Of a DNA stretch of 54,159 nt, positions 6,001-39,000 are shown in pieces. A program made the translations under genes and the position numbers. Every line of letters begins with the position of its first letter. The first letter of the stretch is position 1. This DNA is from Candidatus Omnitrophota bacterium. GTDB lineage: Bacteria; Omnitrophota; Gorgyraeia; Gygaellales; Profunditerraquicolaceae. The notes below the pieces were generated by a model. That model made no database searches. It was given only the letters and a program-made list of their open reading frames with translations, and had not been told where the DNA came from. The stretch lies in the NCBI GenBank assembly GCA_028716245.1, contig JAQUQW010000006.1, positions 1 through 54,159 on the forward strand, given 5' to 3'.

Positions 6001-9000
6001 CGTGTAAAGTGTGCATATCGATAAAGTATTTAGAATTGTTTACATCTACTGTCTTATAGTCTTTACTTTTAAGCGGTTCTCTGCCGCCAAGCCAAATTAA
6101 CTGTCCTTCTTCCGCCTCCTCCAAAGATTTCAGTTTTATATCCGCGGTAGTCACTTTAGATATGGCAGCCTTGACTTCATTCTTCATCTTTTGAGGCAGC
6201 TGCGAACCGGTAAAATCTGTTATTTTATATCCGTTATATTGAGAAGGATTGTGGCTTGCGGAGATAAGAATACCCAAATCAGCGCGCACTGCTTTTGTTG
6301 TAACGCCGAACGATAATTCTGGAAATGGGCTTGCTTCATCAAAAAGATAGACAGTAAATTTATGCTCTGGGCTTGATTGAGCGATAAAACATTGCGCGAT
6401 CATCTCGGCAAACTCTTCACCTGCAATACGACTATCGTACCCGATTGCAACTTTATGCAATCCTCTTTCTTTTGCGTATTTAATAACGCCTGTGGTGTAA
6501 AGTAATAAGACTATATCATTTATGGTATTTGGCCCTTTAAGTATTCTGGCTGACGGGCCCTCTTCCTTTAAACGCCGCAGTTCTTCCTCTGTCAATGCAG
6601 CCATTCCGCGAATACCGGCTGTGCCAAAGGTAATATCCTGGCGGAACACCTCCACAATATCCTTCCAGCGGCCTTGCTGAATTGCCTCAAAAATGGCTTC
6701 CTGTGTCTTTGGCGATAGCTTCTTGATGTGATCATCGGTCGCCCAGAATTCCAAGTTTTTATAGGCAACCTTCATTGCCTTATTGTAAATCTCATCGGTA
6801 ATCCGCTTGGCATTGTGCTGATCGGTAAGGTATTTCTCTATCTGTTCCTTGGCGAGCCGTAAAAGACCTGCCTCATTCCCACCATCCAATTTTGTTTTGG
6901 AAAGCTTAGTTGACTTTAAACAAACAGGCTTATTATTATCGAAAATATAACCGCTTCCGTTCTCTATGATGTATTCAATTGCAATCGCCTCTCCAGTATT
7001 GATTCTGACTTTGTAGCCTAAAATACACAAGCGCTCGAGTATTATTTCTTTCAACTGCATTAAATCCATAGCCCTGACTGAACCTAATAGATTCTTAATC
7101 ATTAGCATATCTCGATGTAATATAGTACCCTCTCTTAGTTCAGAAAAACTTACATTGCCATGCCCACAATGGAATGTTTCATCTTCAGAATCGAAAGCTA
7201 GACTAAAAGCGAATTCATATGGCATAACTTTACCATTGACTACCTTGTAGGTAATGTACTCTTCCGTATCTGCCCATCTAGATCTTGAACTACCTACAAT
7301 AATATATCCACCTTCCTCCACATGTTCTGCGAGGTTCTCTAGTTCTTCAGAATAGGAATCTTGATAATAAGTCATAACATTGAATGCTCGTACTACTCTT
7401 GCTTTCTTGGATAATCTAAATTTTCTAAAGTCTCCTTGGATGATAGAGAGATTAGAAGTTTGTCTTACATAATGTTCTATAGGATTAAATTTGATGCAAT
7501 TACCATTCATATCTTGATAATCTTTACCTTTGGATTCTCTTAATAGATAATCCCTTAAGCTTAAATATCTCTCGATTTCATACTGGGATATCTTAGAAAC
7601 TTTAGGAACATATTCCATCCAAGTATAGTCTATGTTTATGATCTCACTAGAATTGTCAAAGAGAATTTCGATGTAACCTTTATTTCCCCGAATACGCACC
7701 ACATATGCAGGAACATAAAGTTCAAGGCCTACAACTTCTATATCGGAATACTTTATGCATAATTTTTGGGCTAATTCAATTATAGTGTATGGCGGATAAC
7801 CTGGACCAATATCTAACATCAGCATCTCAGATTTAGCTAACTCTTGCACAATATACTCATCAACATAACTCAATCTCCCTTTGGAAGTAACTATTCGGGG
7901 TTGAATTTGCCTTGCAACAGAAATATCTGTATTGCATAAATAATTAATATCAAATGCCCCTTTTAATTTCATCTCTTTATAGTTCTTCGACAAATGAACT
8001 AACTTTTTCCAATTTTCTTCGTTAATCCATTTTAGTAATTCTCCGTCTACTGCGGGAGTAATTGATACGATGGGCAACTCATTCTTTACTTCGCCAACTA
8101 ACCTTGTATCTCCGTTTTTATTAAGACCGTATTTATAAATTAATTCCATAGCTGAATCGAAACTGCCAGCTTGTAATAGTAGTTGTTCTGTGTTTACACT
8201 AACAAAACCACCTTTTTGCCTAGAGGTCTCTATCTCTATTTGTTTAAATATATGTCTTGCAAACCTGATATTAGCCAACATATAATCAACTACATCTTCT
8301 CCACCCCGACTTCTTATTTGTTCCATTTTCTTATTAAATTCTTCTAAGTACTTATCTGAGACGCCTTTCTTTGTTTCATTATCTGTTTGTATAAAATTAA
8401 TTGTTAGGTCTATACCGAATTCTTTCTTAGTACTTTCTTGGGTTACTTGTAAAACTACAACGTAATACGGGCCTATCTTATTTAATGCGTGTAACCTTTT
8501 AATAAACCCATTTGCAGTATAAGGATGAAGTTTTATATTAAATCCTTTGCTGCATAATTTACTTATGACATTATTTAAAATTCCCCCAAGTTTAGCCCTT
8601 AATTCCTCTTCTGCAATATCCACGTTGGCAGAAATATCAAAATCAGGGTTATTCCCTATATAAGTTAACCTCGCTGTCGAACCAAGATTTTTTACCCAAA
8701 GTAACTTTTTGTCAATGCATTGTTGAATACTAATTCTTATAACATCTATAATAGTTTTTTCGATTTCCTTTATATTAGCGACTTCATTTTTATTCAACTT
8801 AAATTTCTCTATTTCCTGTAACAACATGACTTCAAATACATCTCCAACCACTCTATCAATACAGAGTTCTTTTCCACCGTCTCTTAGGAAATTTATAACT
8901 TTTTTTGCTTCCTTATAAAAAATATTAAAATCTATATCCGGATTAGTTCTATTTAATATTAAAGATTCTTTACTAATGACTTCAGTTAAACTCCTATGCG

Positions 9001-12000: not shown

Positions 12001-15000
12001 AATTGTTACTAATCTCATCCATTAAATCCTTAAGCGGCATTAAATTCAACCGTAAAACATCTTTTAATATGGATTTCGGGTTAAAAATTTCATTTTCTTC
12101 CTTTGGATTAAGGATGTATAAAAAAAATTTGCCCCATTCACAGTTATTAATTTCCTTTGAACTTGAATAGAAAATATCTTCTTTATATTCTGCCTTTACG
12201 CCAAAACCTTTTTTGCCTATCTTCTTCTCACCCCTGACCCCCTCTAACCGCATGATGCGATTTAGATTAGGTTTAATTCCTGTCTCATCAAAAATTATTC
12301 GTTCAGCTGCCTTGTCATAATTTTCATCAGAAAATAGATGCCCTGCGGCAGAAATGTCTTTTCTTCCATCCTTACGCACCTGAATCAAAACTTGTCCTTT
12401 CATCGTTACCATTAGTATCTGAGAATTAGCATGCCATTGACCAGTTTTATGTGCCTCATTCCATTTTATTTTTTCATCTAACAACTTGCCATTTTTTGAA
12501 TCGACTTTCCGTAAATAAAGTTCAGGGAGGTTCGCTTTAACCTCAGAGATTTTGTTTGCAATATTATTATATAATTCTTCCAGCCCTTTATAATTACGCA
12601 TATTTTTATAATAACTGCATATACCAAATAGTCTATAAAATAAGCTTAATGCTTCTGCTTCTCTCTTATCATTTAGCAATTTTTCTCCACTACTGAAATC
12701 TTTACGGATATTTTCTATAAGTTCGCATAAATCTTCTTTACCGTCTTCGTCAATGCCGCCATCTTTGATAAATTTACCTTTTTCTAATTTTCCTAAGATA
12801 GTATCAATAACACTCCCATCTTCTTTTCGTATTTCAATACTAGTAGCAAAAAACAAAACAAATTCCTCTAATTTCTTTAATTTTTCTTCTAAACTTTCTC
12901 TCTTATCGTTAATAATAAGAATGTCTGCTTTCTCTTTAATTTCTTCAACTACATTTAACATAGAAGTAACTCTACTATTTAATTCTGATTTACTAATTTT
13001 GCTTCGTTTCTCTATACGGCTCCCTAAAATATTCTTTATATCATCTTTCTCTGTCGCTGGTAAAATACCTACTTTTAATAAATTTATCTTACAAGAGATT
13101 TCGGATGACTCTTCTATATCTTTCACAGTCTCGTATCCTTCCAACAAAATTACTTTTTCAGAATTTACCACCCGCGCCCATTCGCTTTTTCCATATGCAT
13201 ATCTAAACCCATAATGTTCCTTAATAAAAAGTAGCTCTCCCTGCATAACCTCTTCATCAAACTGCTTCTCTGAAACAAAACGATGTCTCTTATGAATACT
13301 ATCATCGTCTCTCGGGTTTCGGGTAGTTGTTCGGATCATAGTAATAAAAATATTGGAATATTTCACCAATAAATAATTAGCAAAAGTACTTTTCCCAGAT
13401 CCGCTTGGCCCCATTATTGCTAATATTTTCACTTTTGCTTCTAACTCTGGCTTCAAAGATCTTCTCTTGATATCATCTTCTTTTAATGCTAGAGGTATTT
13501 CTCTATTTAATGAAGTAATTTCTTCTCCGCCATCAGTATCAAAATCTCTTTTTCTCTTCATTTCATATAGCTCATTGGTATCTTGTTGCCACAAGATATC
13601 CACAGAATTTAAGATGTCCTTTGCCCCCATCATTTCGAATTGCTCCTCAACAAATTCATTTACTACCTCTTCTACTGAACGGTCTTTACCGCCTTGTTCT
13701 ATTGCAGAAGTCTCTATTTTTATCTTCCGTTCAAGCCTAGTTTTATCATTTTTAAGGACTATTCCTGTAAGGAAATCTATTTGGTTCCTTATTTCCTCAT
13801 GCATTACTAAATCGTAAGATCCGGTTATTATTAAAACATCCAAAGGACTCATTATTTTCTTTTCAATTTCTCTCCCCTGTTTATCAAAATCACGAGTGAT
13901 AATTAACCTATCATTTCTAACATCTTCTATATCTCTGGCTATATTAGACCACGCATATCTTGATGAAACGCTCAAGATATTAAATCTAGTCTTGTCTGGT
14001 TTCGTAAAGAAACTAAACCCCTCTTCCGGATAGCGATAACCTTCTGAATTTATGGAATCCGCCTTAAATCCTTTTATTCGCAAGGATTCAATGAGAAATT
14101 TAGCAAGAGTTTTCTTCCCTACATACGGAAGGCCTATTATACCTATAACAAAACATTTAGGTGAAGAATCAAAGTACTGTATCATAGATTTTTCGATTAT
14201 TCTAAGCAATAATTGCGACCCCCCATCTTTATATCTTTCCCTCGCTTCTTCTATTAATCTCTCAAAGATATCAAATCCAGTTTGTGTCCTATAAAGGGTC
14301 TTATTCCTAAAACCAAATTCTCTAGCTCTTTCCTCCCCGAAAGCTTCTTCATAGAGCATATATTCTTCTTTGTGCCGTTTAACATTGCCTTCTATTCTTT
14401 CCTTAGGAGAAACTCTTACTTCATTCTCATTTAAACCTTTTTCACGCGCCTTGTCTTGAACTTTCTTAAGATCTCGCTGTAAGTCAATTTTAAGTCCTTC
14501 TTCTGATAACATCCAAAGCCTGTCTGCTTCGCGATGAAACAAAACTAACTTATCTTTTCCTGTAAAAAGCCATATACCATCATTTGAATCTTCATATTCC
14601 TGAATGGAAGGATTATCGTGGACTTCGATAACCGCTTTAATCGTACTGATATCCTCTTCTCCGAAAGCAAAAGAAGGACTGTTAAGATTAAATTCTTTAA
14701 TGATTTCTTCAGCGTTTATAGCGCCTATTTGCATATGGTCTTTCCTTAATTTTATGGCTTTCTGCCGTAATTCTTCACGCTTAATCAAATCTTCTTCTTT
14801 ATCAATATCAGCTTTCCTTATTTTACCCTCTGCGCCTGTATCATGAAGGAGAGCAGCAACAATACCATTTTTTAATTCATCATCGGTAGCTCCTTCGCCT
14901 AGAGCTATATCTACCATAAACTCAACAACCTGCAAACTATGCTGAACTGGATTCCCTTTCCTTGATTCAATTAAATACGGCAAGGCAAGTTTATAGATTA

Positions 15001-18000
15001 CCTCTAAGATATCGGCAGCCTGCGTTTTATGAGCATCCCTTAATTTCTTCAATGTCCAAGTCAAAATCTGTTCGGATATCAATAGTTCCCCATCTAATCC
15101 TCCGTCTTTACTTTCCGCAATAGTTTTCGGGAATTTAATATTATTATCTTCACAGACTTTACGAATAATTTCGTTTACGATATCAAGCGTTATTACTTGG
15201 CCAGCCATGGCATACACTCTTAACCAAGAGAATACATCATCAATATTATCTAAAGAGAACTCCCGGAGAATACCATCTCGCACTTTGAAAACTTCTATTG
15301 AAGAATCATGCAATTTATATAAACTATGCTCTATAAAACCTGCCAACACACATTTCGCCGCTTCCTCATCGGTTATTTCTACAGACGGGTTATTAATAAC
15401 CTTAATATATACTGCATCCCTGTAACAGGTATAGTCGGCAAGAAGCTCTGTTTCAACGGTAACGCCGGATGCCCTCAAATGTTCAGCTACTTTTCTATGA
15501 GTTGAACCAAGGCTAACTAAAATACATATCTGAGGATTGCTACCTACTACTAATTCCTTAATATTTTTAGCAATAATATTATCCCTTTCTCTTGTCAATG
15601 CCGCAAAAGCACGAATGAACTCTTTTTCTTTAACCAATGCTCTTGCCGGCATCAAAATATTATTCATAACTTCAGAATACAATTTATTGATTTTTATCAA
15701 CTCAATAGAAAGCGCAGACTCAAGCTTCGCGTCAACAAAAGCAAGCTTAGGTTGATATTGATAAATGTAGTCCGCCAGTTGTCTGTAGTAGCCGGGATAG
15801 GCTGTGTGGAATCCTCTATATTCAAGGCTACTTGTAGAAATTTTCCGCTGTGAAATAGCTGTAAAAAGAGATACTACTCCCTTGCCATAAAGAGCGAACT
15901 CAGGGCAATAGATATCATATTTTCCCATAATTTGACCAACTGGATGCGCGTCTGTTGCCGTGATATGCGGACCTAACAAAATCTTCACATTCGTCTTCTT
16001 AATTGAAAAAGGCTTTTCTTTTTTAACAAAGAAATCAAATAACCCGCCGCCGTCCGCCTTGATTTTAACAGTAATACTCTTTTTATGGCTAACCTCAAAT
16101 ATAATACCCCCTCTTGACAATATATTGATTAGTCCCCTATACTCTTTTCTAACATCCAATTCTCTCACTCCCCTGAAAAGTCTATTTAGATTCTCTTCTG
16201 GCTTCTTGAACAGATTAATACGACTAATATTGTTGCCTTCCTCGTTAAAACCCAGAGCTACTTTTGAAAGTATAACAAACAGCTTTAACAACACCTCATT
16301 GCCATTCTCCTGCCTGGCAAAATATTTAAATACAGCCTTACCGTAATCAAAAACAGTTATTTTCTTTCCCATGTATTCAATAAAAATATTTCTATCATTT
16401 TCTGTAATTATATTTTCTTCAATAGCTCTCTTAATTAAAGATTCCGCGGTTTCTTTCTTAATATACCTTCCCAGCCGCACCAAGTGCCAATTTTCATCTT
16501 GTTTATTATATTCTCCTCCTAAATCAGCCCATTTCAGATACTCTTCAAACGTTTCCTGGTCCATCTCATCAGCTCTTTCACCGTAACTCCTATCGGCAAT
16601 GGAAAGTATGGCTAGCATATCCAAAGCAACCTGATTGTTTTCTAATCCTTTCCTCATATACGCCGGGATACGTTCTGTAGTAATTACTGTCGAAATATCC
16701 ACGTGCTTTTCAATAATCAATTTAGCAAGTCCTATTATCTGGTCTTCAAAACCAAGTTCCTTAAGAATCGGCCCCACAAAACACCTTGCGCCAATCTCAG
16801 GGTGAGCTGAAGTCCTAATTATCTTTCCGAGATCATGCAAGAGCGGCAATAAAAAAAATAGTTCTATTAATTTACTATCACTCAAGGCTTTGTCTAAGTT
16901 TTCCTTCACTTTCTTTAACCCCTGACTCTTATTCAAATCTATTTCCTTAATATCACTTCTGGTAGTGCTTTCATTTGTTTTCAAAAAAGTATTTACCCGT
17001 TCCCGATTATAATTCTCTGTATCTAAACGTATAATACGGTCAAAAGCATCAAATACTTCTAAGGTATGCGTCAAAGCAGTCGTGCCATGATCATCTATTT
17101 CCATACTGGACATAAAAGGAAACACTTCTTTAAATCTGGATAAATTATCCTTAAGCGTGCTTCTTTCCTCGGATACCAATAAAGCATTCAGCCACCTTTC
17201 ATATTCGTTTTTGTTTATTTTATTAATTAGTTCTAAGGTTTCATAAACTTTAGCTTTCTGTTTATCATTAAAATCCAATTCAAAAACATCAGATGTATCA
17301 CTATCAACGCCACCGTCAAAGAGAGCCAACCTCGTCCCATCTTCATCTCTTACCACACTGTATTTTTTTACCTCTTTTTTCAAATTCTCAAAATTTTCCT
17401 CCACTCCCACGGCTTTTAGCTCTTCCTCAATTTGGCCTGCGGTTGCATCTTCATAGTTATTCTTTACTGCTGCATTAAACTTAGGATCTTTCAACTGATC
17501 ATTTCTATCTTTCTTAACAGATAGTATTTCACCGCCAACTTCAAAAAAAGCCACACCTGTGCCAAATGAACTCGCAGGACTAAATTTACCTTTGGGCATA
17601 AGATATACTCGCAAAGTTTCATCTGCTTTTTTGGTAAATATACAATTGAAGGACATCCCTTCCTTTATGACGTCACCATTAGCATGTTTTAAAACATTGC
17701 CTTGCGTGTCTTTTCTCTCGTTTCCTTGGTTACGCAAAACTTCTTCGACGATTGTCTCAATAACTTCAGCGATGTTCTGCTCATTTGTTCCCGTGATTAC
17801 AAAACCTTGCACGGGATAACCCTTCAATACCTCCACTGCCACATCTTTATACAATGCGTTGGGAATAAACTTTTCCGTCTCAAACAATTCAATGGGCATT
17901 GGCGCAGGTTGCATTTTGTCGTCTTCATAAAATATGCCCTGCAGGTGTTGATGGTTTACTGATCCCCAAGCGCCCCAGCTGTTAAATCCGATTTTCAAAT

Positions 18001-21000
18001 GGTCATTATACGGAGTATTTTTCACCAACGTTAACGCAACAACCGCCGCATCTTTGTCCAAGAATTGGTTTTTTAATTCTTCAAAATGCGGCAATATCAT
18101 AATGTGCCCCTTGGCAAGAGGTTTTTCCTGAGAAAAGATCTCAACAGGGATGCCAGCTACGACCTGTTCCCGGAAAAAAGAATCCAATATTCTCAAACAA
18201 TCCACCCTCGCAAAATTAAAGCCGTTCTTGACATCATTACTCGGAACCAAAAAGCAATTCTGTGGATCCTCGGGCATACTTTTTCCGATTCTATCGAGGT
18301 TATATTGCAGAATAAACCGCCCGACCATTTTTCTTTCAAATCTAAAATACGCATCATAATCCTTACCGTATTCGTATGGCCAAACTTTTCTCAATTCATC
18401 TTCTATCATTTTTTTAGAAATGTTGTTTTCCAAATAGTTGCTGGGTACCTTAGGAGATACGCCTAGAACAGTCTGTCTCAACTGTAATCTATTCAAAGAT
18501 TCTTCCGCGGATTTACGAATGCTATCCCTCAAATTATCAGCTTTTCTGATTGATTCTAACTCATCATTTGCTTTAAATCTTTCCAGATATCTAATGGCAT
18601 TTCCTATTTCCATGTCATTTAGCTTACGTTTAGGTTTACCATTAATAAAATCTACAGCCCATTGAATGGTAAAATCCTTAAAGTCATTATTGGTGTTCCG
18701 GTCAAAAAAACCGCCATCCAGCTGTTCGGCTGTGGCGCCATCTTTTCTTATTTCTTCAATCTTAAATTGCGGAAGGGTTATCATTTTTAAAGAAGCCTGA
18801 ATATCTACCAAAAGATTATTTTTTATTTCATTTAAATTTCCTGATCTTTTTTCATTTTTAACCCAGTTGGCTATATTCTCTTTTCCTTTCTCTTCAGCCT
18901 GTTCATAAGCTCTCTTCTGGTCTTGCGTTAGTTGATAGAATAGAATCGGAGCATCTATAACCGGAACTCTGCCAAATTCTGAAGATGCCCATTCGTTGTT
19001 AAATAAAGGTGCCGGGGTACCCAATGTCCGCGTGGCAATATAAACTCTTAATTTATTACCATAAGGAGCAACTAAAATATTAAAAGAATATCCTTGATCA
19101 GTTATCTTTTTAAGCACGTTTGAAGTTACTTTTGTCATTTTTTCGAGATTCTTTGTTTCTGTTTCTAAAACTATACCTGTTCCCCAAAGATTGTAATCCT
19201 GTAAAGTATAAATTTGTATTCCGTTGACAACTCCATCTTCGCGTAGAGACGCATTCTCAACAGGGAATAAAAACCTAACAATTTGAGCATGGCTATGGGC
19301 TTGAGAAGCGCCTGCTTTGGGCGCATTATCAGAATCTGAGTAATACCAACCATTCACAATCAATCTAAATTTCCATTCATCATTTAATAGGCTGGGTGAA
19401 TTATTAAGCTGAGCAGATAATGTAAGCATATCAAATATATTTTCATACTTAGACATTTCCCTTTGATGCACAAATTGATCAATTTTATCTTCATCCCCTC
19501 TCGATACCGTCATATGATAGAATTGAAATTGATCCTCTCCTTCCTGTGTCTCACTAAATGGCCAAATCGGACTCGTATTAAAACTCAACCACCAAATCTT
19601 TCTATTCTTCCACCAAACGCTTCTATTCTCCCAGGAAATCCAAACTATCCCTAATTCCATATTTCCCTTTATAGATGAAGGTACCAACCTACGCATCTTA
19701 GGATTCGTATCTTCAATACGGCCAGCTCCTTCTCCCGGCCTAGCCGGCCTGTTAGCCCTATTTGCATTTTGTATCACAATAAGATAAGCGTTTTGGATAT
19801 TCTTTCTCACATCCTCCGAATTAAACACTCCCAACAATTCTCTTTTAGTATTAAATACCGCATAATCAACAGACTTTTCTTCTATTTTCTCCGGAGGATA
19901 GGTAAAATATTTGCTTTCTTTTATAACACCATTTTGATCTTTTATGAAATACTTGGCTTTAAGTTGTAACTCAAACAAGCTAGAGATTAAACTAAATAAG
20001 TCATTCCCCTTCTCAAATATAATTTCTTGAGGTATGACTTCATACCCATCTTTTGTTTTAAGCAAAACCTTATTTTGCGAATGAAGCTCATTACTAACCA
20101 AAACCAGTTCTTCTTTATTAAGCCCCTCAAATATGCCACCATCTTTTGCTCTTTGGCGCAGGCCATCATAATTTATCTTATCTGTGATGTATTTGAAGGA
20201 CACTTTATGAGCTTTGATATATTCTGCAGGAGGAGACCTGTCTTTTAAAGCCATCCAACTGACAAGGGAGAAGTTCAGCTCTTCATTTTCCTGTAAAGGC
20301 CAGATCTCTAACTTCATAAAGTCATCTTTATCAGTAAAGTTGATGGCGGATATTTTTTGCAGCCTTTCAAGCTCACTATACAGTAATGGATCCGTCTTCT
20401 TTATTTCTGTCACGCTTGCTTTCAACCTTTCAAGCACACTGTAGAGGAAAGAGCCTGTTGTCTTGATATCTTCAACGATTGCTTTCAATTTGTCGTCTCG
20501 AGAGGTGTAAAGCACTGCCCAGTTTAGTTTATTTTCTTTAGTGGTAACCGGGCAGACATTGATAAGGGTATCAGGCTCTGGGTTCAACCTTCCTTTTAGG
20601 CTATAGACAACTACACCGTTGGGTATATTGCTTCCAGAATAAATATGGGAGCCTACGATAACTGTATTTTCTGCTACGCTTACTCCCTCTTCTATTCTGC
20701 TTCTATATATCTTGGCAGAAGAACTTACACTTGCTTCTCTTGAGATTACAGCGTTTATCCTGTCCATAAAGCCGGCGATTCTTTCTTCAGCCCGGGACTG
20801 GGTTATGCCTCTATACCAGGTTGGGATATCACCATAGTCAATGTAATAGGAGTTTGCTGCAACGGTTGCGGTAGCGTATAAAGGCAGGAATTCATTTACG
20901 ACAATATCATAGACGGTCAAGTAAAAACCTATCTTGTCTTTTAAACCGGATGCGTCGAATTCCTTTTTAATCAGAGAATTGTCTTGCTCCTTTACGGTTA

Positions 21001-24000
21001 GGATTATCTTTTTGCCTTCTTTAAGGGCATTTAGTTCTGCGAAGGTAAGTTTTACTTCTGTGTTTTTGGGCAATATGTTTTTAATAACCAGGTAACTGGT
21101 CTCATCAACGGTTAGAGGTATAAAGTAATCGCTTGAGGTATCTATCTCATAAACAGACAGCTTGTTATCTATCTTATCCTTCACCATTTGGTTAATCTTT
21201 AAGAAGGCGTTAAGGAATTTAGAGTAAAGCTGGCGGTCTGTATGGGTAATGATAAAGCTGGCGGTATTGGTCTGGAGTTGGCGGGAATCTTCGTCGTTTA
21301 GATTTATTCCTTCCAGTATACCTGCCTCTACCGCGGCAATAAATTTATTCTCTTCGGGTTTTTCAAGGAAGACTTTAATTCCTTTGGTTTTGATGTCAAA
21401 GGCGACTATGCCGAGCTTCTTGATGGAGTTTTTGATTGATTCGGGATTGGTAATCAAGGCTATACCGTCATAAATAACCGGTTCAGTAATTAAAAGACCA
21501 TCTCCGTTTAAAACCACCAGGCCCGGCTGATTCTTTTCTTTTAAGGCTTGGGTAAATTTATAGGAATGCATAATCACGAAATCCATCATTGTCGCTTGTT
21601 TACCATTGGGTAACACTACGGGTATGGGCATTAAGGTCTTTGAGCCATCAGAAGAGCCCGGGGTATACCTTGTGCCAAAGCCGCCCGCCTGAATCAGAAT
21701 TACCCTTAAATCTTCTATAGACTTACCTTTAAGCTGAGGATAGTTTTCTTGTAATTCAGGAAGCTTATCCTGAAGTGCTAAAAGGGTGTTGCCGATTGCC
21801 CCGCCGTTACCTACGCGTACGCCTTCGGGGTCAGGTATAGAGACAAGCGGAATATCGTTCCTGTAGATTACTCCTCTTAGGGAAGCAAAATGCTCATCAT
21901 AATAACCAGACATGGCCTTGTTTCCGGCTGAAATAAGGATTACATCCGCAGAAAGCTCTGTAAATTCTCTCTGGAATGCTTCTAGGGATGATTCGTATAG
22001 ACGCTTGATCTGGGTGCCGCCGTCTTGAGTTAACTCTTCCTGTTTATTTTCCTCTAACCTCGCAAACGTTATGTCTTTTATATCTATTTTTACGCCTTTG
22101 TATAGCGTCAAAGATAAAATAGATTTTTTATTATCTTTTTCTGCAGCTTCTACAACCAAATTAACTTGATATAATTCATTATCGGAAATATCTACCCTTA
22201 ATGGAAGCTCACCTTTTTTAATAATACCTATTATTTGACTAATCTGCTCAGAAGTAAATAATTCGTCGACCCTTTTTCTTTCGGCATTAAACATATTCAC
22301 ACCAAGCATGGCTATATTAAGAGGAGCAGGCAGACGGCCAAGAGGAATACTGGCGACTTTGATTGATTCTTTAATTAGGTTTTCCGTGATAGAAATTAGA
22401 TTTTCTTTTCTATTAGGATCGGGACGGAATAAGGCTTCTTTAGTTACTTCATCTTGATCATAAACAATAAGCATCCCTGACATTTCACAAATTCCAAATT
22501 TTGTGCCTATAAGTTTTTTATCAACTGTACCCGGATTCTCCGCGGCTCTCGGGAAAATAAATACTCTAATCTTACCTTCACGAATATTAAACAATATGTT
22601 GTAAGGAGTAAAGCCTGCCGCACTGCTATTCAAAATACTAAGGATATCCCAAACTTTGTTTACCAACTTTTCTCTATCCGCATAATCCCCTTCAATTAAA
22701 ATGGTTGTTGCTGGATATATAGACAAATCTTTTACATCAATTATCGGAAGCCGCACTTCAAATAATTGATAATGGAAATGCCCTGATGAAGCGGCTGAAT
22801 TTAAGCTATTGAAGGTAAGATTAAAATCTTCTCTTCCTTCTATCACCGCTAATTTATATAAAAATTTCAGCGCGGTGCGGATATACGATTTACGATTAAC
22901 CATCTGGCAAGGATGTTCATCTTCGGTCGCGTTGCGCACCAAAACAACATGGTTTTTTTCATAAGGATTTGGATTAGGATAAATTGTCCAGTCTTTATCC
23001 AAAACTATGCCGTGTTCTTTTTTAGGCATATTTTCAGGGCACAAGAAACATCCGTATTTGCCTTGCTCCAATTTACCCCTTTTTCCCTGCTCTCTATTGG
23101 GATTGATTTGAACTTGAAAAATTCCTCTGTCATGTTCCGTATCGTATCTTACCGCGAGGCCACCGGGCTCAACTAGGGGAGAAGCTACTTTAACTATTAT
23201 TTGTTCAGAAATTAAATTTTCAATTTGTTTGGAAATAAAAACATTTAAAAGCTTAATGGCCCTTTCATCTCCCAGTCCTGCAAGCTTTTTAACAATACCC
23301 CTTATCTCTTTTAACTTTTCTTGATTTTCTTCGGCTATCCAGCCATCAGCAAGATATGTAATTATTTTTTCCAGTTCCTCAAAAATCAACTTTTCCTGCT
23401 CTTCTGTTAATCTTGGGAATTGCGCGTAATTAATAACTTTTATACTAAAATTATCTTCTGGTTTAACGAAATTTTTAAGGAACCCTAAATAAGCCCTCCT
23501 CTGCTGTAAAGGTTTCTGCATTAATATAACGGTAAACTCTCCGCCTTTAGGTAATGAATCTTTCAGAATCTCTCTGGCAAATTTTATATTGTCATTAGTA
23601 TTTTGTGATCTTAATTCAAGCCTAATTCGCTCTTTCGGCACGCCTTGTTTGATTAAAATATTCGCCATAATTAAAGCTTCACCAGTAACAATCTCCTGTA
23701 TCTTATTCCATTGATTTGCGTTATGAAGCGGTTCTAAAATTTTCTTGACCTCTTCAAAGTTATCACTATTTAACGTTTTTTCATTTGAAATCACAACGTG
23801 GCCGTACTTTGCGTAAACACTCTTTATCAAAGGGAATGTCAATCTCGCGACTCCACCACAGCAGATTATTTCACTTATTTTTCTTTCCTTAAAAATCCTT
23901 GCCGCTTCTTCTGTAACTCCTAAATCATCATTACCTAGCAACATCAATAAATCTGTTCTTTCAGGTAAACCCAATTCAGCCTGCTCATCTTTCATGGTAA

Positions 24001-27000
24001 GATAAAAAGCTAATTGTTCTAATAACTTATTTTTCTCTTCCCCATACTCCAAATTATTCCCCACCAACTCTTTAATCTGGTTCCTTCTGGCCACGAAGCT
24101 TTCTGGGGACTGATTCTTGTAGATGTCTTCAATGGAGGCGACTCTTCCTTTCTTTAAGGCTTCTTTGTAGGAGGAAGGAGGCGATTTAATCTTTTGCTGC
24201 AAGTATTCCAGTATTTCTGGTAATTGCTGGTAAAGCTGGGCGTCTAACTTATCGATTGCTTCGCCTCCTGATAACTGCTGGATGCTGATTACCGGGAAGA
24301 TCTTGGATTTGAAAAGGTTACTGGTTAACGGCCTGTTGGCGTAGAAGTTCTCCTTGACATCATCGATTACCTGTTCCCAAATCAAAAATGCCGTGAAGTC
24401 TTTGCCGTCAATCTTAACCGCGCCTTCATTTAAGACATAGTCTTTATAAAGCTTTAAGTAGGTGATATTGTTTAAGAGGACATTGTAGATCTGGCTACCT
24501 TCTTCTAAGATAATCTCACCTGCTTTGATAAAAGTATTGGTAATCAGCGTCTTAGGATGGATATCGCCTTGTTCTGCTTCTACATAGGAATTATAGGCAT
24601 AGGATTTAACTGCTTCTCCTCCTACCTTTACCGCACTGGCGATTGTTTCCTGTAACTGGTAGGTTTCTGCGATCTCTTGGTATGCTTTTTCCTGTAAGGA
24701 AGTATCTCTTTCCAGCAGGATTGCCCCGGTGTCATACCAGACGCCTTTAACCGGTAAGGCGTAAAGCAGGCCGCGGTAATCTTTAAGTAAATCGGCTATT
24801 GCTTCGGATTTGGCTTCCTGGGCAAAAGCCGGCACGATTTTACCAAAGTAATCTATGTCTACCTCTTTACCGATCTCTCCTTTTAAGGCCTTATCTAAGT
24901 AATTACCTTGCTGATACTGGACTTTGCCTTCTTTTACTTCCATCAGGCCTTCTTTATTGACTATCCCGGCTAAATAGGCATAGGCTATGAAGGCTTTTAT
25001 CCCTAAGACTGAAAATGCCGGGTTCATCAGGATGTATTCATCTTCTACCAAGTATTCTCTACTCTTAAGCCAGGCTTTCATGAATCCATCATCACTCAAC
25101 CCTTGGCTGCCGATTTCCTTCTTTATTTCTTCTTCTTCGACCTTGCTGTATTTCTCCTGGAATTTAACTACATTGATTCCTTTTTGTTTAGCCATGCCAT
25201 ATTTGGTGGCTTCCTTGTAGCTTATCTTCAAGAGTAAACAGGCAAGGCCGTCTTTGATTTCGGGATTAGTGGTGTAATATCTGGCTAATTCTTCAGGATT
25301 AAAGGTCATTAAGGCATCACCATAGATAACGGCAAACATGAAGCTGTCTTTGTAGTTAGCTTCCATATTTACCGCTAGGTCTAATAATGATTCCATGATC
25401 GGTGAGGCGGTATCTGCAGTTTTGCTGGTAATCGGGGTAATGGCCAGGCATTTGCCTATCTGGGTGTATTTGGCGTTCCTCTGGGCTTGGCCGCCGGCGG
25501 TGATGACTACGGTGTGGTCTTTGGTTTGGGTTAGGATCTCTTCGAGGCTGTAGATGCCGTCGTTAAGCTTTAGCCTGGCGATATAGGCTCGGATGACGCT
25601 TAAGATGCCTAAGCCATTACCTTTTAAGACTATTCCTTGTCCTGCTTTAAGGTCAGAGACTACCATATCATTGTCAAAAGTAGCGTTTGCCGGCCAGTTG
25701 TATCCTTCAAAGTATTGGTGGAAGGCTGCTTTTTGCTCTGAGCTGAATACGGATAGGTATATGGCTGTAGGTTGAGTAAAACCTTCCTTGCCTAAGACCC
25801 TGATCGTAGACCAGTCTTGGCGGGTGCCGCCGTCAAATCTAATCTGCCCTTTAAACTCACTCATCGCTTCTTTTATCACGCTCTCGACATACACTAAATC
25901 CTCGGCATTCTTGACTTCAAAAATAATACTGGGTGAACCGCCAAATGCCATTCTCACCACATTGCCGTCTCCATACACATAAGTCGCGTCATCAACTGTA
26001 ATACCTGCTTCTATTTCTTTATTATCTAAACCTTTTCCATAGGTATTGGTATAGATGATCGCAATGTTAAAGACGCTTAAAGGATGTGACATAATCGCTT
26101 CAATTCCGGTATGCGCGACACCGGGCAATGCCAGAAGCGGCACGGTAATATTCCAATCCGCAAACAACTTGGTTAAATATAATGCTAACTCTTTAATCTT
26201 AGGATTATTTATATCCACTTCCATGAATGTCAACGGCATATAGATCAGGCTGTCTTTTCTTGCCTCAAACATCATCTTCTGGTATCTAACCAAGTCTTTA
26301 TTCAAATCACCGGTTGGTGTAAATTCACTGTTTTTCTCAATCGCCACAGAAATCTTTACCCGGTCATTCTGGAATAACACTACCTGTTTCTCTAAAGGAA
26401 TACTCTTCGCGGTTGTTGATGACAGTCCTAAGTATTCTCCTATTTCTGAGAGTCTAAATGCCTCATCTATTTCCTGGACTTTACTACCGCCTGCTTCTCC
26501 CACATCAGCCTTTGCCGCTTCTTTGGAGATTGATTTAACAAATCCCATAGTTACCTTTGTATTGGAGATGCTCAATCCTTTAGCCAAATCATTTAACGCG
26601 TTATTAAACACGTCAAATTCTTTATTGTAAGCCTGTCTCTGGATGTTCTTTGCCTTGAACGCTTCACTAATTGCAACTTCCGCAAGCGCCTGCTCCGTTT
26701 CAATCTTGGTGATGACATCTTCAAAACTCATGCGGATATCTTGTTTTTTGGCTTTCTTTTCTTTTACTTTATCGAACCCGGCTGCGGTTAACTCTCTTAC
26801 CAGTTTTACCGCAGGATTAGAATTAGCATCCTGATTGGTTATGTAGGTAAAATAAACCACCATATCTTGCAATAGCGCGCTTGTCCTGGCTAAAACCTTT
26901 AAATTATTCTTTAAATCATCAGTTAACTCTATCGAGATTACAGTACAAGGTATCCCTCTATCCTTTAACCCCCCTATATATTCTAAGGTTTCATTATAAT

Positions 27001-30000
27001 TATCTGTGTTCTTGTTCAATAAGAATAACAGCGTTTGTGATTGTGGAGCTTTCTCAAATACAGTTTCATATATTTTTCTGTCATCTTTAAGCGAATAGCT
27101 AACCAAAATATTATTGTTTGATCCTCCGGCAATATTCTTATTCCCGCCTTCATTTAAGAGCTGTAACAACTCTTTGGTGGTAAACTTAAGGCTGTTATCG
27201 AATATCACCGAGAACTTATTCCTGCCTGATTCACGATACCTCAGCAAGGCTTCAGCTAACTGCACACCAACGCTATCCAATCCATTCTTGTAGGCTAAAT
27301 CGTTATTAGCAGCATTGAGTTCCTCAACGTAATATTTTAAATACTCTTTGGCGACTTCTGTTGATTTTAATCCTACTGCCAATGCCATAAATAATGGCAC
27401 ATAAGTCATTAGGGTCTTTCTGTTCATCTGCCTGCCGCCGATGTCTCCTCTAATATCCTTGATAATCAACACCTTAGCGGTAGAATCCTTTGCTAATTCT
27501 TCCGCTAATTTCATTAGCTGGCCTTTGGCGGCCGCAACTATTCTCTTTTTAAACATATCTTTGGTCGCGTTGAAGAAATCAAGCGTCTCTTTGGTACTAC
27601 CAGACCTGGACATCTCAAACACTATGGCGTTGACGTCATTGGCGTCCGCGGGTAAAACCTTTAAATGCGCTGGATTATTCACTACTATCCATTTCACATC
27701 TATCCCCATCAATTTGAAATACTCATTCAATGCCCTAGCTAACTGATGTGAATACATCTCATTTGCGCCAATACCGGAGGTAATTACATATTTAATGTTG
27801 TTTAAGTCAATGCCCTTAAAGAATCCTTCGACCATGCCTAAGGTATCCAACAAATCCGTTGCGTCTCTCTGTCCATCTATAAGCGTAAAACCTAAGAATC
27901 TACCTACGAATTTATCCATATCATCTCTGAAGACAAAAGGAACTTCTTTTGCCAAATCCCTAAATAAACTTAAGAAATCAGATAAAGGCTCCCCGTTAAT
28001 ATCCTGCTGTTTACCCTCTACTTGATAACTCTGCGCTTTCACATCTACCGCAACTTTACGGGTTTGGAATTCTCTCGGATCAAATAATTTTTCTTCTCTT
28101 GCCTTGTTCAAACGGTAATTCGCGGCAACCGGTTTAAAGAATTCTACTCTTCTTAACACCGCCAACACATCTGCCTCAGATTTACCGCTAACCCTACTTA
28201 ACTCTTTAACAAACGCCACTGAATCAAGTGATGTCCTGAATATCTGAATTACCCTCTTATAATCCTTAATTCCCAGCATTGCCATGATGTAGGCGATCTT
28301 CATCATCAGATCAACCGAAGAGACCTGCTTGCTGCCACCGTCAGAATTTAGGTTAAATATCTTTTGAGTATCTCCTAAGATATTGGTTTTCCGGGCGGCT
28401 ACTGTCATATTCTGTATTGATCTTCCTTTTGAACCATAGAAAATACCGCTCGGTTTTATACTAATCACATTAAATCCAACCGTACTTAATAAGATCCTCA
28501 TAGATGTTTCTGAGAAATGGCTTATATGGTCTCCTAAATGAAGAACCGGTCCAGTTTCGAGAGTCTCTGGATATCTAATAATAACTATCCCCTCTGGTTT
28601 TAATATACGTTTTACCTCTTGCATAAATTCTTTTGGTGAAGGAATATGCTCTAAAGTGTCATATAATAAAACAACATCAAAAGAGTCAGAAGCATAGTTC
28701 ATCTCTTTTAATTCTGCGGCATATACTCTTCCTTTCAGACCGCGCCCAATAGCTATCTCGACCATTGCTTCTGATATGTCAACACCTTCTACATTCCAAC
28801 CCCTTGATTCTAATTCTTCCAATAGATAGCCACTGGCAAATCCTACTTCTAAAACTTTACCTTTCTGCTTAACTATTTCTTCTAATTCATCGGCTCTAAT
28901 ACGCGCTATATTCTTCCTCTCTTCCTCTACTTCTTTTGAACCTACCTCCATAATCCCAACCTGTTCAGATAAATCTTCACCCCTATTGTCTTTCACAAAA
29001 TATTGCATATTATATAAATCTTTATAAAATTTATCTACGGGTTGCGGATTAAGCCACATAAATCCATCATTATGGCATTTAACGATATTCATCTCTTGAT
29101 TATTAATGATAATCTTTCCTATTGCCTTATGACTATTGGATCCACAAATTGCGCAACGAACAGTTTTAGTTTTAAATGTACCTATCCAATTTATATTCCC
29201 TTGCCAAAACAGAGGTAATCTATTTTCTTCTTTACCGCCATCGAATTTACCCGCAAATAGGAATATCTTATCTTTTGCTGCTCCAGGATACGGCCCTTGT
29301 TTTATTTCCAACAATCTTGCATCAATACCTATATATCCTAAACTGTGACCTTCAACAAAATAGATAATATCTCCTTCATTTAAAATTTTTGAATTAATAA
29401 ATCTCCCTTCTTTAGTATAAATACTTGTTTTAATGCTACCGGAAAGAACAATCATAATTTCGTGTCTCGGCGATTCAAATGGCGTATGGACATGAGGCAG
29501 AGAAAGTTTCGAATCTTTATGTATAATATTAATACACAATTGCATAGCAAGCTCATAAACAGAAAATGCCATAAATCTTTGAATATTTAAATTATTTCTA
29601 ATTATCATACCTGCATCTCTACCATTATCTGTGATTATTTCAACAAGGCCTCTAAATTCTGCCTGGAATAACTTATAAATATCAGCAGCAGATATCTCCC
29701 GTGAACTTATTTCAATTATCTTTGCGTCCCCAAAAAATTTGAGCCCATATCTTCCTATAATGCTAATTGTATCTTTTTCATTTAAAGTCGCTCTCTTAAT
29801 TTCTCTTCCAATTTTGTCGTATAGGCCTACTTCCACCTGCTTACCTTTAATACTTATAATATTATATGTCTTCTGAGTGTTAGTATTGATACTAACTATT
29901 TCGCCGTTAAGAATATTTTTAATTTCGATTTGCATTGGTAATTCTTCCGGAGTTATTTTCCCCATCGCATTTCTGCTTACTAAGGCTATAATTCTATCTT

Positions 30001-36000: not shown

Positions 36001-39000
36001 AAATTCTATCATTAATTACTAAGTCAGGACCTTTCTGTTCTATTGCTCTACGAAGATTGGTAATGTTATTTTCATCTGCCAATAGTTCTTTTATCTTATC
36101 CTCAATCTGCTCATCTACAATTTTCTGCTGCGCCTGCTTATTTATCTGGCTCATTTTATCGAACAACAATTTCTTCACATTAGTTACATTGCCATCATTT
36201 ACTTCTAAAAGCGCATTACGTAAACCTGCTTCTATCGAATCCCAAAGAGTAATGGTTATAACCAAACCAAAATTACCGTTTTGAGCCCTTGCCTGCCGTA
36301 AATTACTAAGCGTACTGGCATCATCTAATATTTTTTTTGCTTCTCGGCTAATCTTTTCATTAATAGTACGGTTTTCATATTCATTGTTAAGCATGCCCCA
36401 GAAATTTTCTTTGGCCTTATCTATATCATTGTTATTCCAGTTTAAAAGGAATTGTTTTAATTGTCCGGGTAAATCATCCCAAATAACATTCATATTATTT
36501 AAAATTATAGAACTTCTGGCTTCTTTATAACTTAGCTCTTTAGCAAGTTTTAACATTTCTTCTCCCATAAAGAAAGATAAAGGTAGTTGTTCCCTCTTCT
36601 TGATTTCTCTCTTTACTTTTTCTAAATAATCTTGCTGATTTTTATTTTCCAAATCTTGCCAAAGAGCTTCTGCGCCTTGAGTTTCTAAAGCATCGAGCTT
36701 AAGCCTGATTTGATATATTTTATTGAAATACTGACCAGCCTTACCTTTAATTACTTCTCCAAGATAAACGTAAGTCCCCTTCTTAAAACGATTAATGAGC
36801 CAAACAATTGGCCTTAATGTAACTAAAGCTATGATAATGCCTACAACAAGAACTGTAGCTAAAATGAAGATGCCGAAGACACCCATCTCTATTTTCTGTA
36901 TTAGGTTATAATTACTTTTCTTTGACGTCACATTGAACCGCCAAATCTTACAATCTGCCTTAAAGAATCCCCACCATAGCCTGGTCCCCACACTTAAAGG
37001 TGTTGACCCGGGATTTGCCAGGAATGGAACAGCAAAAGCAGAAACTACCATTAATACATAACTCCATGACCAGATTAACGTCAGATTCCAATAAAAAGAT
37101 ATGGCAATAATTGAAATAACCGTGAGAGTTAACCCATAACGAATATGGCTTCTCCTGTAATCATTATATAATGACGCGTTTTCTTCTTGTAATCGCCCTT
37201 TCGAATCAAATGGCTTAACCGCGAAGATAGGAATATGATGCAACATAAAGCCTCTTCCTGTTCCCACATACATCGCAATTCCATCCATTGCTTTTCGCAC
37301 TCCAAAAGCATAAGTAAATACCTGGGCCATAAAATAAGGCACCATACCTTCGATAAGCATCTTTGAGAAACTGCCTGTAGCTCTCACAAACCCTTTCTTC
37401 AGCATCATTTGAAAATAGCCTCCCAATGCGATAGCTTGCATAAGGAGTATCGCCAGCAGCCCGAAGATTATTTCTGAAGGAAATGAAGCAAATCCGCTTA
37501 TACCCAATAACAATAAAAGAATAATATACGAAGTAACACCCAATCTAACTATGGGTTTTCTCAAAAAGAACCCTATGGCACCGATGAAATGCGACATTAC
37601 CTGATCAAGCGAGAAATTAGAAGAAGTATTCAGTAAATACAAGTATCGGGATCTACCCTGTTCGCCGCCGCCCATGCCTAATTTTTCAAAAAATCCCGCG
37701 GTTTTCGAGAAAGCAACTTCTCTTGCTTTGCCTGCAAGAATAAATTCAAAAAAATCCACCGTATATCCTTTTAATACCAATAAGTATCCTCCGAAGATAT
37801 CTTCATTAACATAAGAAGGCAAAGATGAACCTCGCTGGCGAACATAAGTCTCATCCCAAATATCAGGATGTCCATAATGGAACCTGACTTTTAGTAGAGT
37901 AAGAACTCTGTTCGTCAAAGAGTTAAATGTTCCATCTGCAAGAGCGTTAAATTTAGCTATTGTGTTAAATGTTTCAGTAACTATATGTTCCGGGAAACCT
38001 ATAAGCTTAACTTGATCATCATATTTGAACTTTTCCATTAAATTAGGCATAAAAAACCATTGTTCGAGGTAGAAATCCTGATTAACATCAATGCTCATCA
38101 TCTTTTCTCCCCGAACATATCTTATGCCATTAGTTTGCCCTTCGGGTTTACCTTCGGCCAATAATTCCTTACCCGGCAAAGTGATACTCTGCGAGTGAAC
38201 AATCGTTCCAGAACTACATTTCGCTAGGCCGCTAGTAGCATTAAAGAAATAAGCTATTTGTAAAATCTCAGGATATTCTTTCAACAGCCAATCCAAATCC
38301 TTAAATTTTTGTATTTCATCTGGCTTTGTTGAAACAGAGAAATTCCGGTATTGGTCAAAAGCTATTACATACTGAAATTTCTCAAGTAATTTCTTATTTA
38401 TCTGCTCCTCAGTATTGCGAACAAAGAATCCCGGGTCCTCAATCCCCAATTTCCACTTTAGGATATCCCGATAATACATCATTCCCCTAATCGTTCTTGA
38501 TAAAGGCTGGAATGAATACGATGCCCAAAGCCTTACCTCCATTATCAAATCATCATTACCTATAACAAGTGGGGTACCATAAACCAGATTCTTCATCTTG
38601 TCAATTTCCTCTGGAGGATATTTCTTAGTGCTTTCTAAATATTCAATAAGGTTTTTCCATTCATCCGGGAAAAGTTTAATTAAATACGTCAGCGCCGTTA
38701 AACCGGTATTAAGAACTTTATTCAAATCCTTAAACTCATAAATGACTTCTTCGTTACCAACCGGAGTCATGATGCTGAGTGAAAAAAGCTGTTCCCATGT
38801 TGGAGCGATATCCATATCCATATGCAGCTGATCCGCAAACCAGATGATTCTTTCTTCTGCTGATTTGTTAAGCGGTTTTTTGCCCAAATTAGGTTCTGCG
38901 TTTATTTTACCTTTAAGATAGTCAGACGAGTTCTCTTCTATTTTGAACTCATATGCTTCAAGTTCTTGTTTGGACAACCTCTTTTGTAGATACAAAGCTG

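Follow-up and report, generated by a model that had tools for sequence, protein, structure and literature searches.

The window analysed here is the whole of a 54,159-nucleotide stretch of contig JAQUQW010000006.1 (GenBank assembly GCA_028716245.1) from a Candidatus Omnitrophota bacterium, and it carries part of one giant gene whose product contains, in its middle part, a block of putative nucleotide-sugar enzymes (Table 1). Minus frame 2 had no stop in 18,052 codons, and the five other frames had 584-1929 stops each; the window (2-54157, minus strand) is a single open reading frame (ORF) of 18,052 amino acids (aa) that is open at both ends. The gene therefore exceeds the window in length, which is also why a mechanical ORF list contained just two ORFs of at least 150 aa. 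Residue i of the chain starts at window position 54157-3(i-1) and, since the gene lies on the minus strand, the N-to-C order runs from high to low window coordinates, the block being read from ~28,000 down to ~17,350.

From its N-terminal side, the chain consists of a QEAGAAK repeat, two GNAT domains, a Fic domain, a GH2-like barrel, GT48 and HEAT repeats, followed by a radical-SAM domain with SPASM, a SAM methyltransferase and the nucleotide-sugar block (aa 8600-12290, window 17288-28360, ~3,700 residues), and then by HD, a P-loop kinase, guanylate kinase, NUDIX, PGM/PMM, two HUMPS-type barrels and SIS. Within the block, a domain with the fold of glucose-6-phosphate isomerase (PGI) is followed by an FKGP-like nucleotidyltransferase (NTase 1), DUF218, HIT-C (of the DUF4922 type), a second nucleotidyltransferase (NTase 2) with a beta-helix, HIT-B and HIT-A. 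The original prediction, made from the letters of the window, had proposed exactly this seven-domain order, which we found on the minus strand. It had placed the block at 17350-28000, where the block indeed lies, except that the PGI domain begins ~360 nt past the upper border. Its further statement that GT48 and PGM belong to the same chain was confirmed by Pfam matches to both.

Landfill metagenomes contain the exact sequence words of the window, whose source is an uncultivated bacterium in such a metagenome. Independent unitigs from three landfill samples covered the examined domain borders with essentially no differences and no joints, and their coverage had one gap, at ~21975-22145. A chimera was at one point suspected from loose ends at window positions 20350 and 21600 (three runs); it was rejected, as the loose ends were 18-21-nt chance matches to unrelated contigs, and other unitigs bridge both positions without differences.

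Table 1. Features of the giant chain within the 54,159-nt window, in N-to-C order.
Feature	Window position	Strand	Residues and evidence
GT48 1,3-beta-glucan synthase catalytic region	37502..38869	-	aa 5097-5552; PF02364 E=4.5e-81
PGI-fold domain, divergent	26708..28360	-	aa 8600-9150; AF2 model + Foldseek
Conserved region without Pfam match (PGI appendix)	25811..26707	-	aa 9151-9449, ~300 aa
NTase 1, FKGP-like	24035..25810	-	aa 9450-10041; PF07959 24-26 bits, below cut-off 34
DUF218	23318..24025	-	aa ~10045-10280, Pfam core 10160-10229; PF02698 E=1.3e-10
HIT-C, DUF4922-type	22358..23170	-	aa 10330-10600; HFHYQ aa 10460-10464 (window 22766-22780)
NTase 2, FKGP-type + left-handed beta-helix	20558..21940	-	aa 10740-11200; AGGFGTR aa 10824
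HIT-B	18710..20050	-	aa 11370-11816; HSHAQ aa 11621-11625 (window 19283-19297); nucleophile His11623
HIT-A, GDPGP1/VTC2-type	17288..18445	-	aa 11905-12290; nucleophile His12071
Nucleotide-handling cluster (HD, P-loop region, guanylate kinase, NUDIX)	12230..14944	-	aa 13072-13976
PGM/PMM domain	4733..6532	-	aa ~15876-16475; PGM_PMM_I E=9e-24, PGM_PMM_II E=6e-9, PGM_PMM_IV weak

The three HIT domains form the core of the block. The pattern H.H.[HQ] occurred at exactly three sites in the 18,052 aa (aa 10460, 11621 and 12069), one per HIT domain; all three domains keep the nucleophile His, which was present in every ortholog checked. Profile comparison showed that the three are mutually homologous (95-99% probability), bearing out the prediction of three HIT phosphorylase-like domains. 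HIT-C matched the GDPGP1-like profile of the HIT-A family (hhalign 99.0%, E=4.9e-18) as well as HIT-B (hhalign 95%; BLASTP E=8e-6), while the family alignments of HIT-A (A1) and HIT-B (A2) matched each other over 240 columns with the His motif in register (hhalign 98.8%, E=7e-17). The paralogs within the chain share at most 22% identity, indicating that they are old; a recent tandem duplication was considered and rejected, because orthologs elsewhere are closer (35-44%) than the neighbours in the chain.

The GDPGP1/VTC2-type enzymes described in plants and animals are stand-alone phosphorylases. HIT-A carries the motif of these enzymes, GFNS.GA..SVNH.H.Q with the nucleophile His, as GFNSWGAWGSVNHQHLQ (aa 12057-12073, window 17939-17989), which includes both the GFNS.GA..S.N stretch and HxHxQ and agrees with the near-canonical VTC2 motif that had been noticed in this domain. 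In the consensus of 61 sequences (A1), GFNSLGAxASVNHLHFQG, the residues N180, N189 and H192 and the Q are invariant and H190 is nearly so. When 1.84 billion representatives were searched exhaustively with HMMER, 182 relatives of HIT-A and HIT-B were recovered, 38 of them below 1e-30; those of HIT-A comprised long multi-domain proteins (35-44% identity) and ~66 stand-alone proteins of 250-520 aa (mostly ~300-450). A word-indexed search with HIT-B + HIT-A gave no match, and the A1 profile gave one. Neither HIT-A nor HIT-B matched the local Pfam library, a scan that misses PF26217 even in P0088, for which the precomputed table lists it. Orthologs of HIT-A carry Pfam GDPGP1_N/GDPGP1_C, and PF26217, with or without PF26216, is found in the orthologs P0005, P0007, P0008, P0013 and P0018 and in the stand-alone P0056 and P0088. 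The HIT-A family profile (positions 11-293) matched residues 8-307 of the 333 of the yeast Ap4A phosphorylase Apa2 (PDB 4i5t; E=2e-10) across both lobes and thus has the two-lobe GalT/Apa-type architecture. By sequence, no solved structure is closer than Apa2, and the His motifs align; Apa2, however, acts on dinucleoside polyphosphates, and the N/S-rich stretch that precedes the His of HIT-A is of the GDPGP1 and not of the Apa type. HIT-A is accordingly classed, by its sequence, as a putative GDPGP1/VTC2-family domain, a family name that does not fix GDP or any other substrate.

HIT-B belongs to a separate clade in the GalT/Apa/GDPGP1 branch of HIT, one that lacks a Pfam model. It has ~30 relatives at 27-44% identity, which group apart and have the features QN..RA.RPGR, INGWYYS and APKAGASQ.QAHAQ in common; in this clade the nucleophile His (H253 in A2) is invariant and the first His is often Q or N. 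HIT-B itself had no match among PDB sequences or Pfam models, and a single-sequence AlphaFold2 (AF2) model of HIT-B + HIT-A was uninformative (pLDDT 33.5). HIT-C, by contrast with these two, is a DUF4922 member by Pfam (PF16269, E=6e-8, 33.0-35.4 bits against a cut-off of 23.6). The set as a whole differs from its eukaryotic counterparts VTC2/GGP and GDPGP1/mcp-1 in that VTC2/GGP and GDPGP1 are known as stand-alone proteins of ~350-450 aa, whereas here three diverged paralogs lie in a chain of >18,000 aa; identity to the eukaryotic VTC2/GDPGP1 members is only ~18-27%.

Sugar-1-phosphate nucleotidyltransferases produce nucleoside diphosphate (NDP)-sugar and pyrophosphate (PPi), and two such domains accompany the HIT domains. 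The original prediction had described both as fucose-pyrophosphorylase-like. For NTase 2 this stands, since PF07959 matched in two stretches above the Pfam cut-off (E=1.3e-16, 61.1 bits against 34). For NTase 1, PF07959 was the sole Pfam match and fell below the cut-off, and the NCBIfam match to fucokinase/fucose-1-phosphate guanylyltransferase was weak (E=0.009). Its motifs are AGGQAQRNAKYTQIGK (aa 9554), YGDAL (9612) and WYDTGA (9807). An ortholog of NTase 1 in P0007 (aa 1552-2245; 43% identity) matched the same PF07959 profile region at 27.4 bits. The two NTases of the chain matched each other by BLASTP (E=6e-4), and their comparison by hhalign was not significant. We conclude that NTase 1 is probably, though not provably, FKGP-like, and we do not file it as a member of FKGP/FKP. 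Like FKGP/FKP fucose-1-phosphate guanylyltransferase, both NTases have the nucleotide-binding motif GG...R...K (G-G-x-x-x-R...K). NTase 1 and the P0007 ortholog do not differ in this motif, and both match the same N-terminal profile region. Unlike FKGP/FKP, they lack the fucokinase half, and the best match covers only about the first third of the 418-position profile. No GHMP kinase was matched by Pfam anywhere in the 18,052 aa, indicating that neither NTase is a bifunctional FKGP. The beta-helix behind NTase 2 (a weak, sub-threshold LbH_EIF2B match at aa 11135-11184) is placed as in GDP-mannose pyrophosphorylase and eIF2B-type enzymes, and not as in FKGP. PDB sequence searches with NTase 1 and NTase 2 gave no match, and, as far as can be judged from sequence, the sugar specificity of neither NTase is revealed. 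The DUF218 domain that follows NTase 1 scored 41.8 bits against a cut-off of 27.6, and DUF218-like stretches adjoin HIT-A or HIT-B homologs in P0017, P0038 and P0039.

At the N-terminal end of the block, the PGI-like domain had no Pfam PGI match and otherwise matched weakly by sequence: PDB 2wu8 at E=0.28-0.71 and NCBIfam PGI/PMI at E=0.003, the NCBIfam score of 16 bits lying far from the curated threshold of 214. The phmmer alignment to 2wu8 nevertheless brought the GIGGS and SKxxST.ET motifs into register. An AF2 model built from 8 homologs (mean pLDDT 67, core blocks mostly ~70-94) was compared with the PDB by Foldseek, and the top 50 matches were all glucose-6-phosphate isomerases (E 3.7e-12 to 3e-10, ~520-610 aligned columns, TM-score ~0.5). 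According to the model, the domain thus has the PGI fold with its two SIS sub-domains. The full-length fold match and the phosphate-binding motifs in register relate it to glucose-6-phosphate isomerase; the lack of a Pfam match, SGIGANE in place of GIGGS, and GGRQM in place of GGRYS set it apart. Its motifs are SGIGANE (aa 8794), SRSGSTKET (8850), GGRQMNRK (8907) and NEGGNK (9002); on inspection of the motifs, Glu and Lys seem to be retained in NEGGNK. A word-indexed search retrieved close relatives at 57-85% identity and two stand-alone proteins of 530 aa (P0158, P0159). The motifs SGIGANE, SRSG.T.ET, GR..(R)NKT and NEG.N are common to the homologs P0153-P0159, and the PGI-like domain constitutes a separate family together with the two stand-alone proteins.

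The region behind the PGI-like domain is conserved as well, being >60% identical in P0154 and P0155, which align through aa 9433-9437 of the giant, and it is always found C-terminal to a PGI-like domain. In a 3,031-nt locus at 64% identity (L012), a true stop at ~1808-1810 comes right after the PGI module and this appendix, followed by the sequence GAGGGGG, which resembles a ribosome-binding site (RBS), and by an unrelated gene with a signal-peptide-like start from ~1860. In P0156 and P0157, the gene starts 75 aa N-terminal of the PGI domain with Met and a signal-peptide-like segment. In relatives at 57-64% identity, the borders of the PGI module are therefore borders of genes.

We mapped the giant protein onto 150 retrieved proteins and three giant ORFs from metagenome-assembled genomes (MAGs); giant ORFs related to this chain bear the NCBI label of Planctomycetales MAGs. 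The window itself contains no marker genes. HIT homologs were repeatedly fused to, or adjoined, NDP-sugar enzymes, nucleoside monophosphate (NMP) kinases and GT5 glucan synthases. P0007 is a start- and stop-bounded protein of 2,368 aa (L004 5222-12445 / L008 3001-10107) that begins with a signal-peptide-like segment and ~390 aa without an assigned domain and contains a GDPGP1-type HIT, PGM and an NTase-1-type domain, with little else recognisable; its gene lies on a 1.6-Mb contig beside the housekeeping genes for trigger factor, ClpP and serA. P0008 (2,549 aa) combines radical-SAM, GT5 starch synthase, GT1 and GDPGP1 domains in one protein, and P0018 and P0104 each contain a HIT-A-like together with a HIT-C-like domain. 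P0006, a stand-alone HIT-B homolog of 415 aa, is encoded with a 4-bp same-strand overlap with a GT5/GT1 glucan synthase gene (L014 6001-8897); another GT5 gene is found 2.6 kb upstream, on the opposite strand. In the giant ORFs, UDP-glucose pyrophosphorylase and cytidylate kinase lie ~2,600 aa upstream and 800 aa downstream of HIT-B (L001), UDP-glucose/GDP-mannose dehydrogenase directly follows HIT-B in an ORF that also contains PRPP synthetase (L002), and PGM directly follows HIT-B in the third (L003). The link to glucan synthase that had been suggested for the window thus gained independent support from the overlap of the P0006 gene with GT5, from the GT5 fusion in P0008 and from P0007 with its GDPGP1, PGM and NTase-1-type modules. 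Across L010 14-17663, the P0008 gene is followed by a called gene of >5,086 aa, with an overlap of 25 nt at the end of P0008, and a frameshift may have broken a single giant gene into these two.

Considering this recurrent company, the reading that we favour, and to which we would give roughly an even chance, is that the block supplies and exchanges NDP-hexose and hexose-1-phosphate and so sets the donor pool for glucan synthases, including GT48 in the same chain. The PGI-like isomerase and the PGM of the same chain would convert hexose-6-phosphates to hexose-1-phosphates, and the two NTases would convert nucleoside triphosphate (NTP) and hexose-1-phosphate to NDP-hexose. The three HIT enzymes would interconvert NDP-hexose plus inorganic phosphate (Pi) and hexose-1-phosphate plus NDP, or transfer NMP between hexose-1-phosphates, each perhaps with its own nucleotide or sugar preference. 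Jointly, NTases and HITs would set which activated hexoses, and at what level, reach the glucan synthases, here GT48. In VTC2 and GDPGP1, the second His of HxHxQ forms a nucleotidyl-enzyme, which is resolved by Pi to yield NDP and hexose-1-phosphate; hexose-1-phosphate can also resolve it, giving transferase activity (PMC10069634, PMC7041677). The original prediction had NTases and HITs running in opposing directions. This agrees with textbook chemistry, but reactions of either type can be reversed, and the VTC2 reaction has been measured in the synthetic direction (PMC10069634). In animals, GDPGP1 is linked to glycogen metabolism (PMC7041677); similarly, the partners of the HIT domains here and in relatives are glucan synthases. 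We regard the block as a loose toolkit and not as a line of ordered steps: relatives carry its modules in other arrangements, and only the theme is kept. Tethered channelling and proofreading are purely inferred; for GDPGP1, a proofreading role was put forward by Adler et al. 2011, as cited in PMC7041677.

Several observations weigh against donor supply. The theme recurs, but the seven-domain order was present in no other retrieved sequence, and the gene of the L012 relative ends after the PGI module with an unrelated gene next to it. GT48 lies ~3,000 aa upstream of the block and ~6,500 aa from HIT-A, with HEAT, radical-SAM and methyltransferase domains in between. No further GT48 turned up in the relatives that were examined, whose glucan synthases are GT5. 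The GIGGS motif of PGI is altered to GIGANE and no obvious His was located by motif inspection at the usual catalytic position, where the ring-opening His would be expected, so that the PGI-like domain may not be an isomerase; NTase 1, moreover, scores under the Pfam cut-off. Relatives of two modules have signal-peptide-like N-termini, and if these segments are cleaved the enzymes would be away from cytoplasmic nucleotides. Finally, if an NTase and a phosphorylase shared one sugar, the result would be a futile cycle (NTP + Pi to NDP + PPi), which makes the ideas of proofreading and of an energy cycle worth testing.

Among the alternatives, an accidental mosaic, in which giant genes accrete and shuffle modules, NTase and HIT domains are neighbours without sharing a pathway and the modules act alone or are inactive, fares best, and we still regard it as unlikely. 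The lack of a conserved domain order speaks for it, as do the coincidence of gene borders with module borders in relatives and the varied domain company of HIT-A and HIT-B homologs, which are also found near PPDK-like domains, transketolase, PGK and 2H phosphoesterases; published catalogues, too, list Pfam families by the dozen, unrelated to one another, for a single giant protein. Accretion in giant genes, however, does not explain the small bounded cases, namely P0007 with its three matching modules and the P0006-GT5 gene pair. Furthermore, in each of the three separate giant ORFs every neighbour of HIT-B is a nucleotide-sugar or nucleotide enzyme, and the catalytic residues are conserved.

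A catabolic or salvage role is somewhat less probable still. Here, the HITs would phosphorolyse NDP-sugars, whether released by turnover within the cell or acquired from a host or prey, to hexose-1-phosphate and NDP, and PGM and PGI would lead on to glycolysis. The remaining parts of this proposal, equally doubtful, are that HD, NUDIX and NMP kinases recycle the nucleotide and that the NTases run pyrophosphorolysis. Phosphorolysis is the documented direction of GDPGP1 and VTC2 (PMC10069634, PMC7041677); PGM, PGI, NUDIX, HD and guanylate kinase share the chain, and the signal-peptide-like N-termini of relatives would suit such a role, as would the host-dependent or predatory lifestyle with sugar pre-processing that has been proposed in published work on such giant proteins. 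By contrast, the recurrent partners are synthases (GT5, GT48) and UDP-glucose pyrophosphorylase, which favours supply over breakdown. Extracellular nucleotide chemistry would also proceed without control by Pi, NTP or PPi, and no transporter or lytic domain was found within the block.

Energy coupling fares worst. That the HITs are true donors of activated glucose (from NDP and glucose-1-phosphate, with no NTP) or, together with the NTases, an exchanger of NTP/Pi and NDP/PPi, wired in either case to GT48/GT5, seems improbable to us; as a rival account of the block, interconversion of NTP + Pi and NDP + PPi by NTase and HIT with catalytic hexose-1-phosphate is very unlikely, and so is its variant in which the HITs make NDP-glucose from NDP and glucose-1-phosphate, sparing one anhydride bond per glucosyl. 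The NTase and HIT reactions do sum to exactly this exchange, the VTC2 reaction is reversible, Omnitrophota have been published as fermentative and energy-poor, and PPDK_N/PEP-utilizer domains occur in 4 of the 25 HIT-bearing long proteins; yet the PPDK-like domains may be glucan-water dikinases, one of the proteins having a match to the glucan-water-dikinase marker Ig_N_CWD1. If the HITs did act as donors, they would provide an energy-sparing route to polysaccharide that has not been described in bacteria, with HIT-B as its dedicated enzyme. An origin of the block in eukaryotes was also considered, because GT48, VTC2 and FKGP are mainly eukaryotic families; it was rejected, as the relatives come from bacterial MAGs, with bacterial genes next to them, and in one of them the next gene is preceded by the RBS-like sequence.

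Neither the enzyme superfamilies nor giant multi-enzyme proteins as a class are new. New are the three-clade bacterial set of GDPGP1-like domains, including the HIT-B clade, the PGI-like family marked by SGIGANE, and the recurrent link of HIT domains to NDP-sugar and glucan-synthase enzymes. Our literature search found no bacterial study of the GDPGP1/VTC2 family, and DUF4922 continues to be annotated as a domain of unknown function. The recurrent context gives the GDPGP1-like bacterial clades a testable role in donor supply for polysaccharide synthesis, and P0007 and the P0006-GT5 pair offer small models that can be expressed and assayed, unlike a protein of 18,000 aa.

With an ORF of >10,000 aa, many distinct enzyme Pfams and transmembrane anchoring, the architecture of the chain matches the class of 'multi-enzyme metabolic' giant proteins of Omnitrophota (bioRxiv 10.1101/2023.11.21.568195, 10.64898/2026.06.07.730766), with which it has in common a stop-free ORF of >54 kb, a membrane anchor and the methyltransferase, GNAT, HD, radical SAM, PGM, NUDIX, HIT and HEAT families. 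Landfill metagenomes are among the sources named in these papers. Both give Pfam content only, with no occurrence of the terms GT48 or fucose, and the FKGP-like NTases and the three-clade HIT set are not described in either; PF02364, PF07959 and PF16269 do not occur in 10.64898/2026.06.07.730766, the one paper checked for these identifiers.

Outside the block, 18 candidate transmembrane segments were detected with a Kyte-Doolittle threshold, all at aa 824-6426. No hydrophobic segment passed this threshold C-terminal of aa 6426 (window 2-34880), indicating that the final ~11,600 residues form one soluble tail on the GT48-bearing membrane part. Hydrophobic segments flank GT48 inside this bacterial giant protein. 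The N-terminal part, which is rich in transmembrane segments, also contains the two GNAT acetyltransferase domains and the Fic domain (aa ~1116-2046, window 46178-51667), and at the N-terminal edge of the window the heptad QEAGAAK is repeated six times in tandem (aa 1-45, window 54023-54157). Between HIT-A and HD, ~780 aa (aa 12290-13070, window 14948-17290) had no significant Pfam match; in P0050, a homolog of aa 12337-12649 directly follows the HIT-A-like domain, and the two may travel together. The P-loop region of the nucleotide-handling cluster gave a weakly scoring match of the PRK/uridine-kinase type. Toward the C-terminal end of the window, the chain has a pair of OMPdecase/HUMPS-type barrels and then a SIS domain (aa 16970-17742, window 932-3250). 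Together they look like a hexulose-6-phosphate synthase/isomerase pair of the ribulose monophosphate (RuMP) type, which could supply fructose-6-phosphate to the PGI-like domain.

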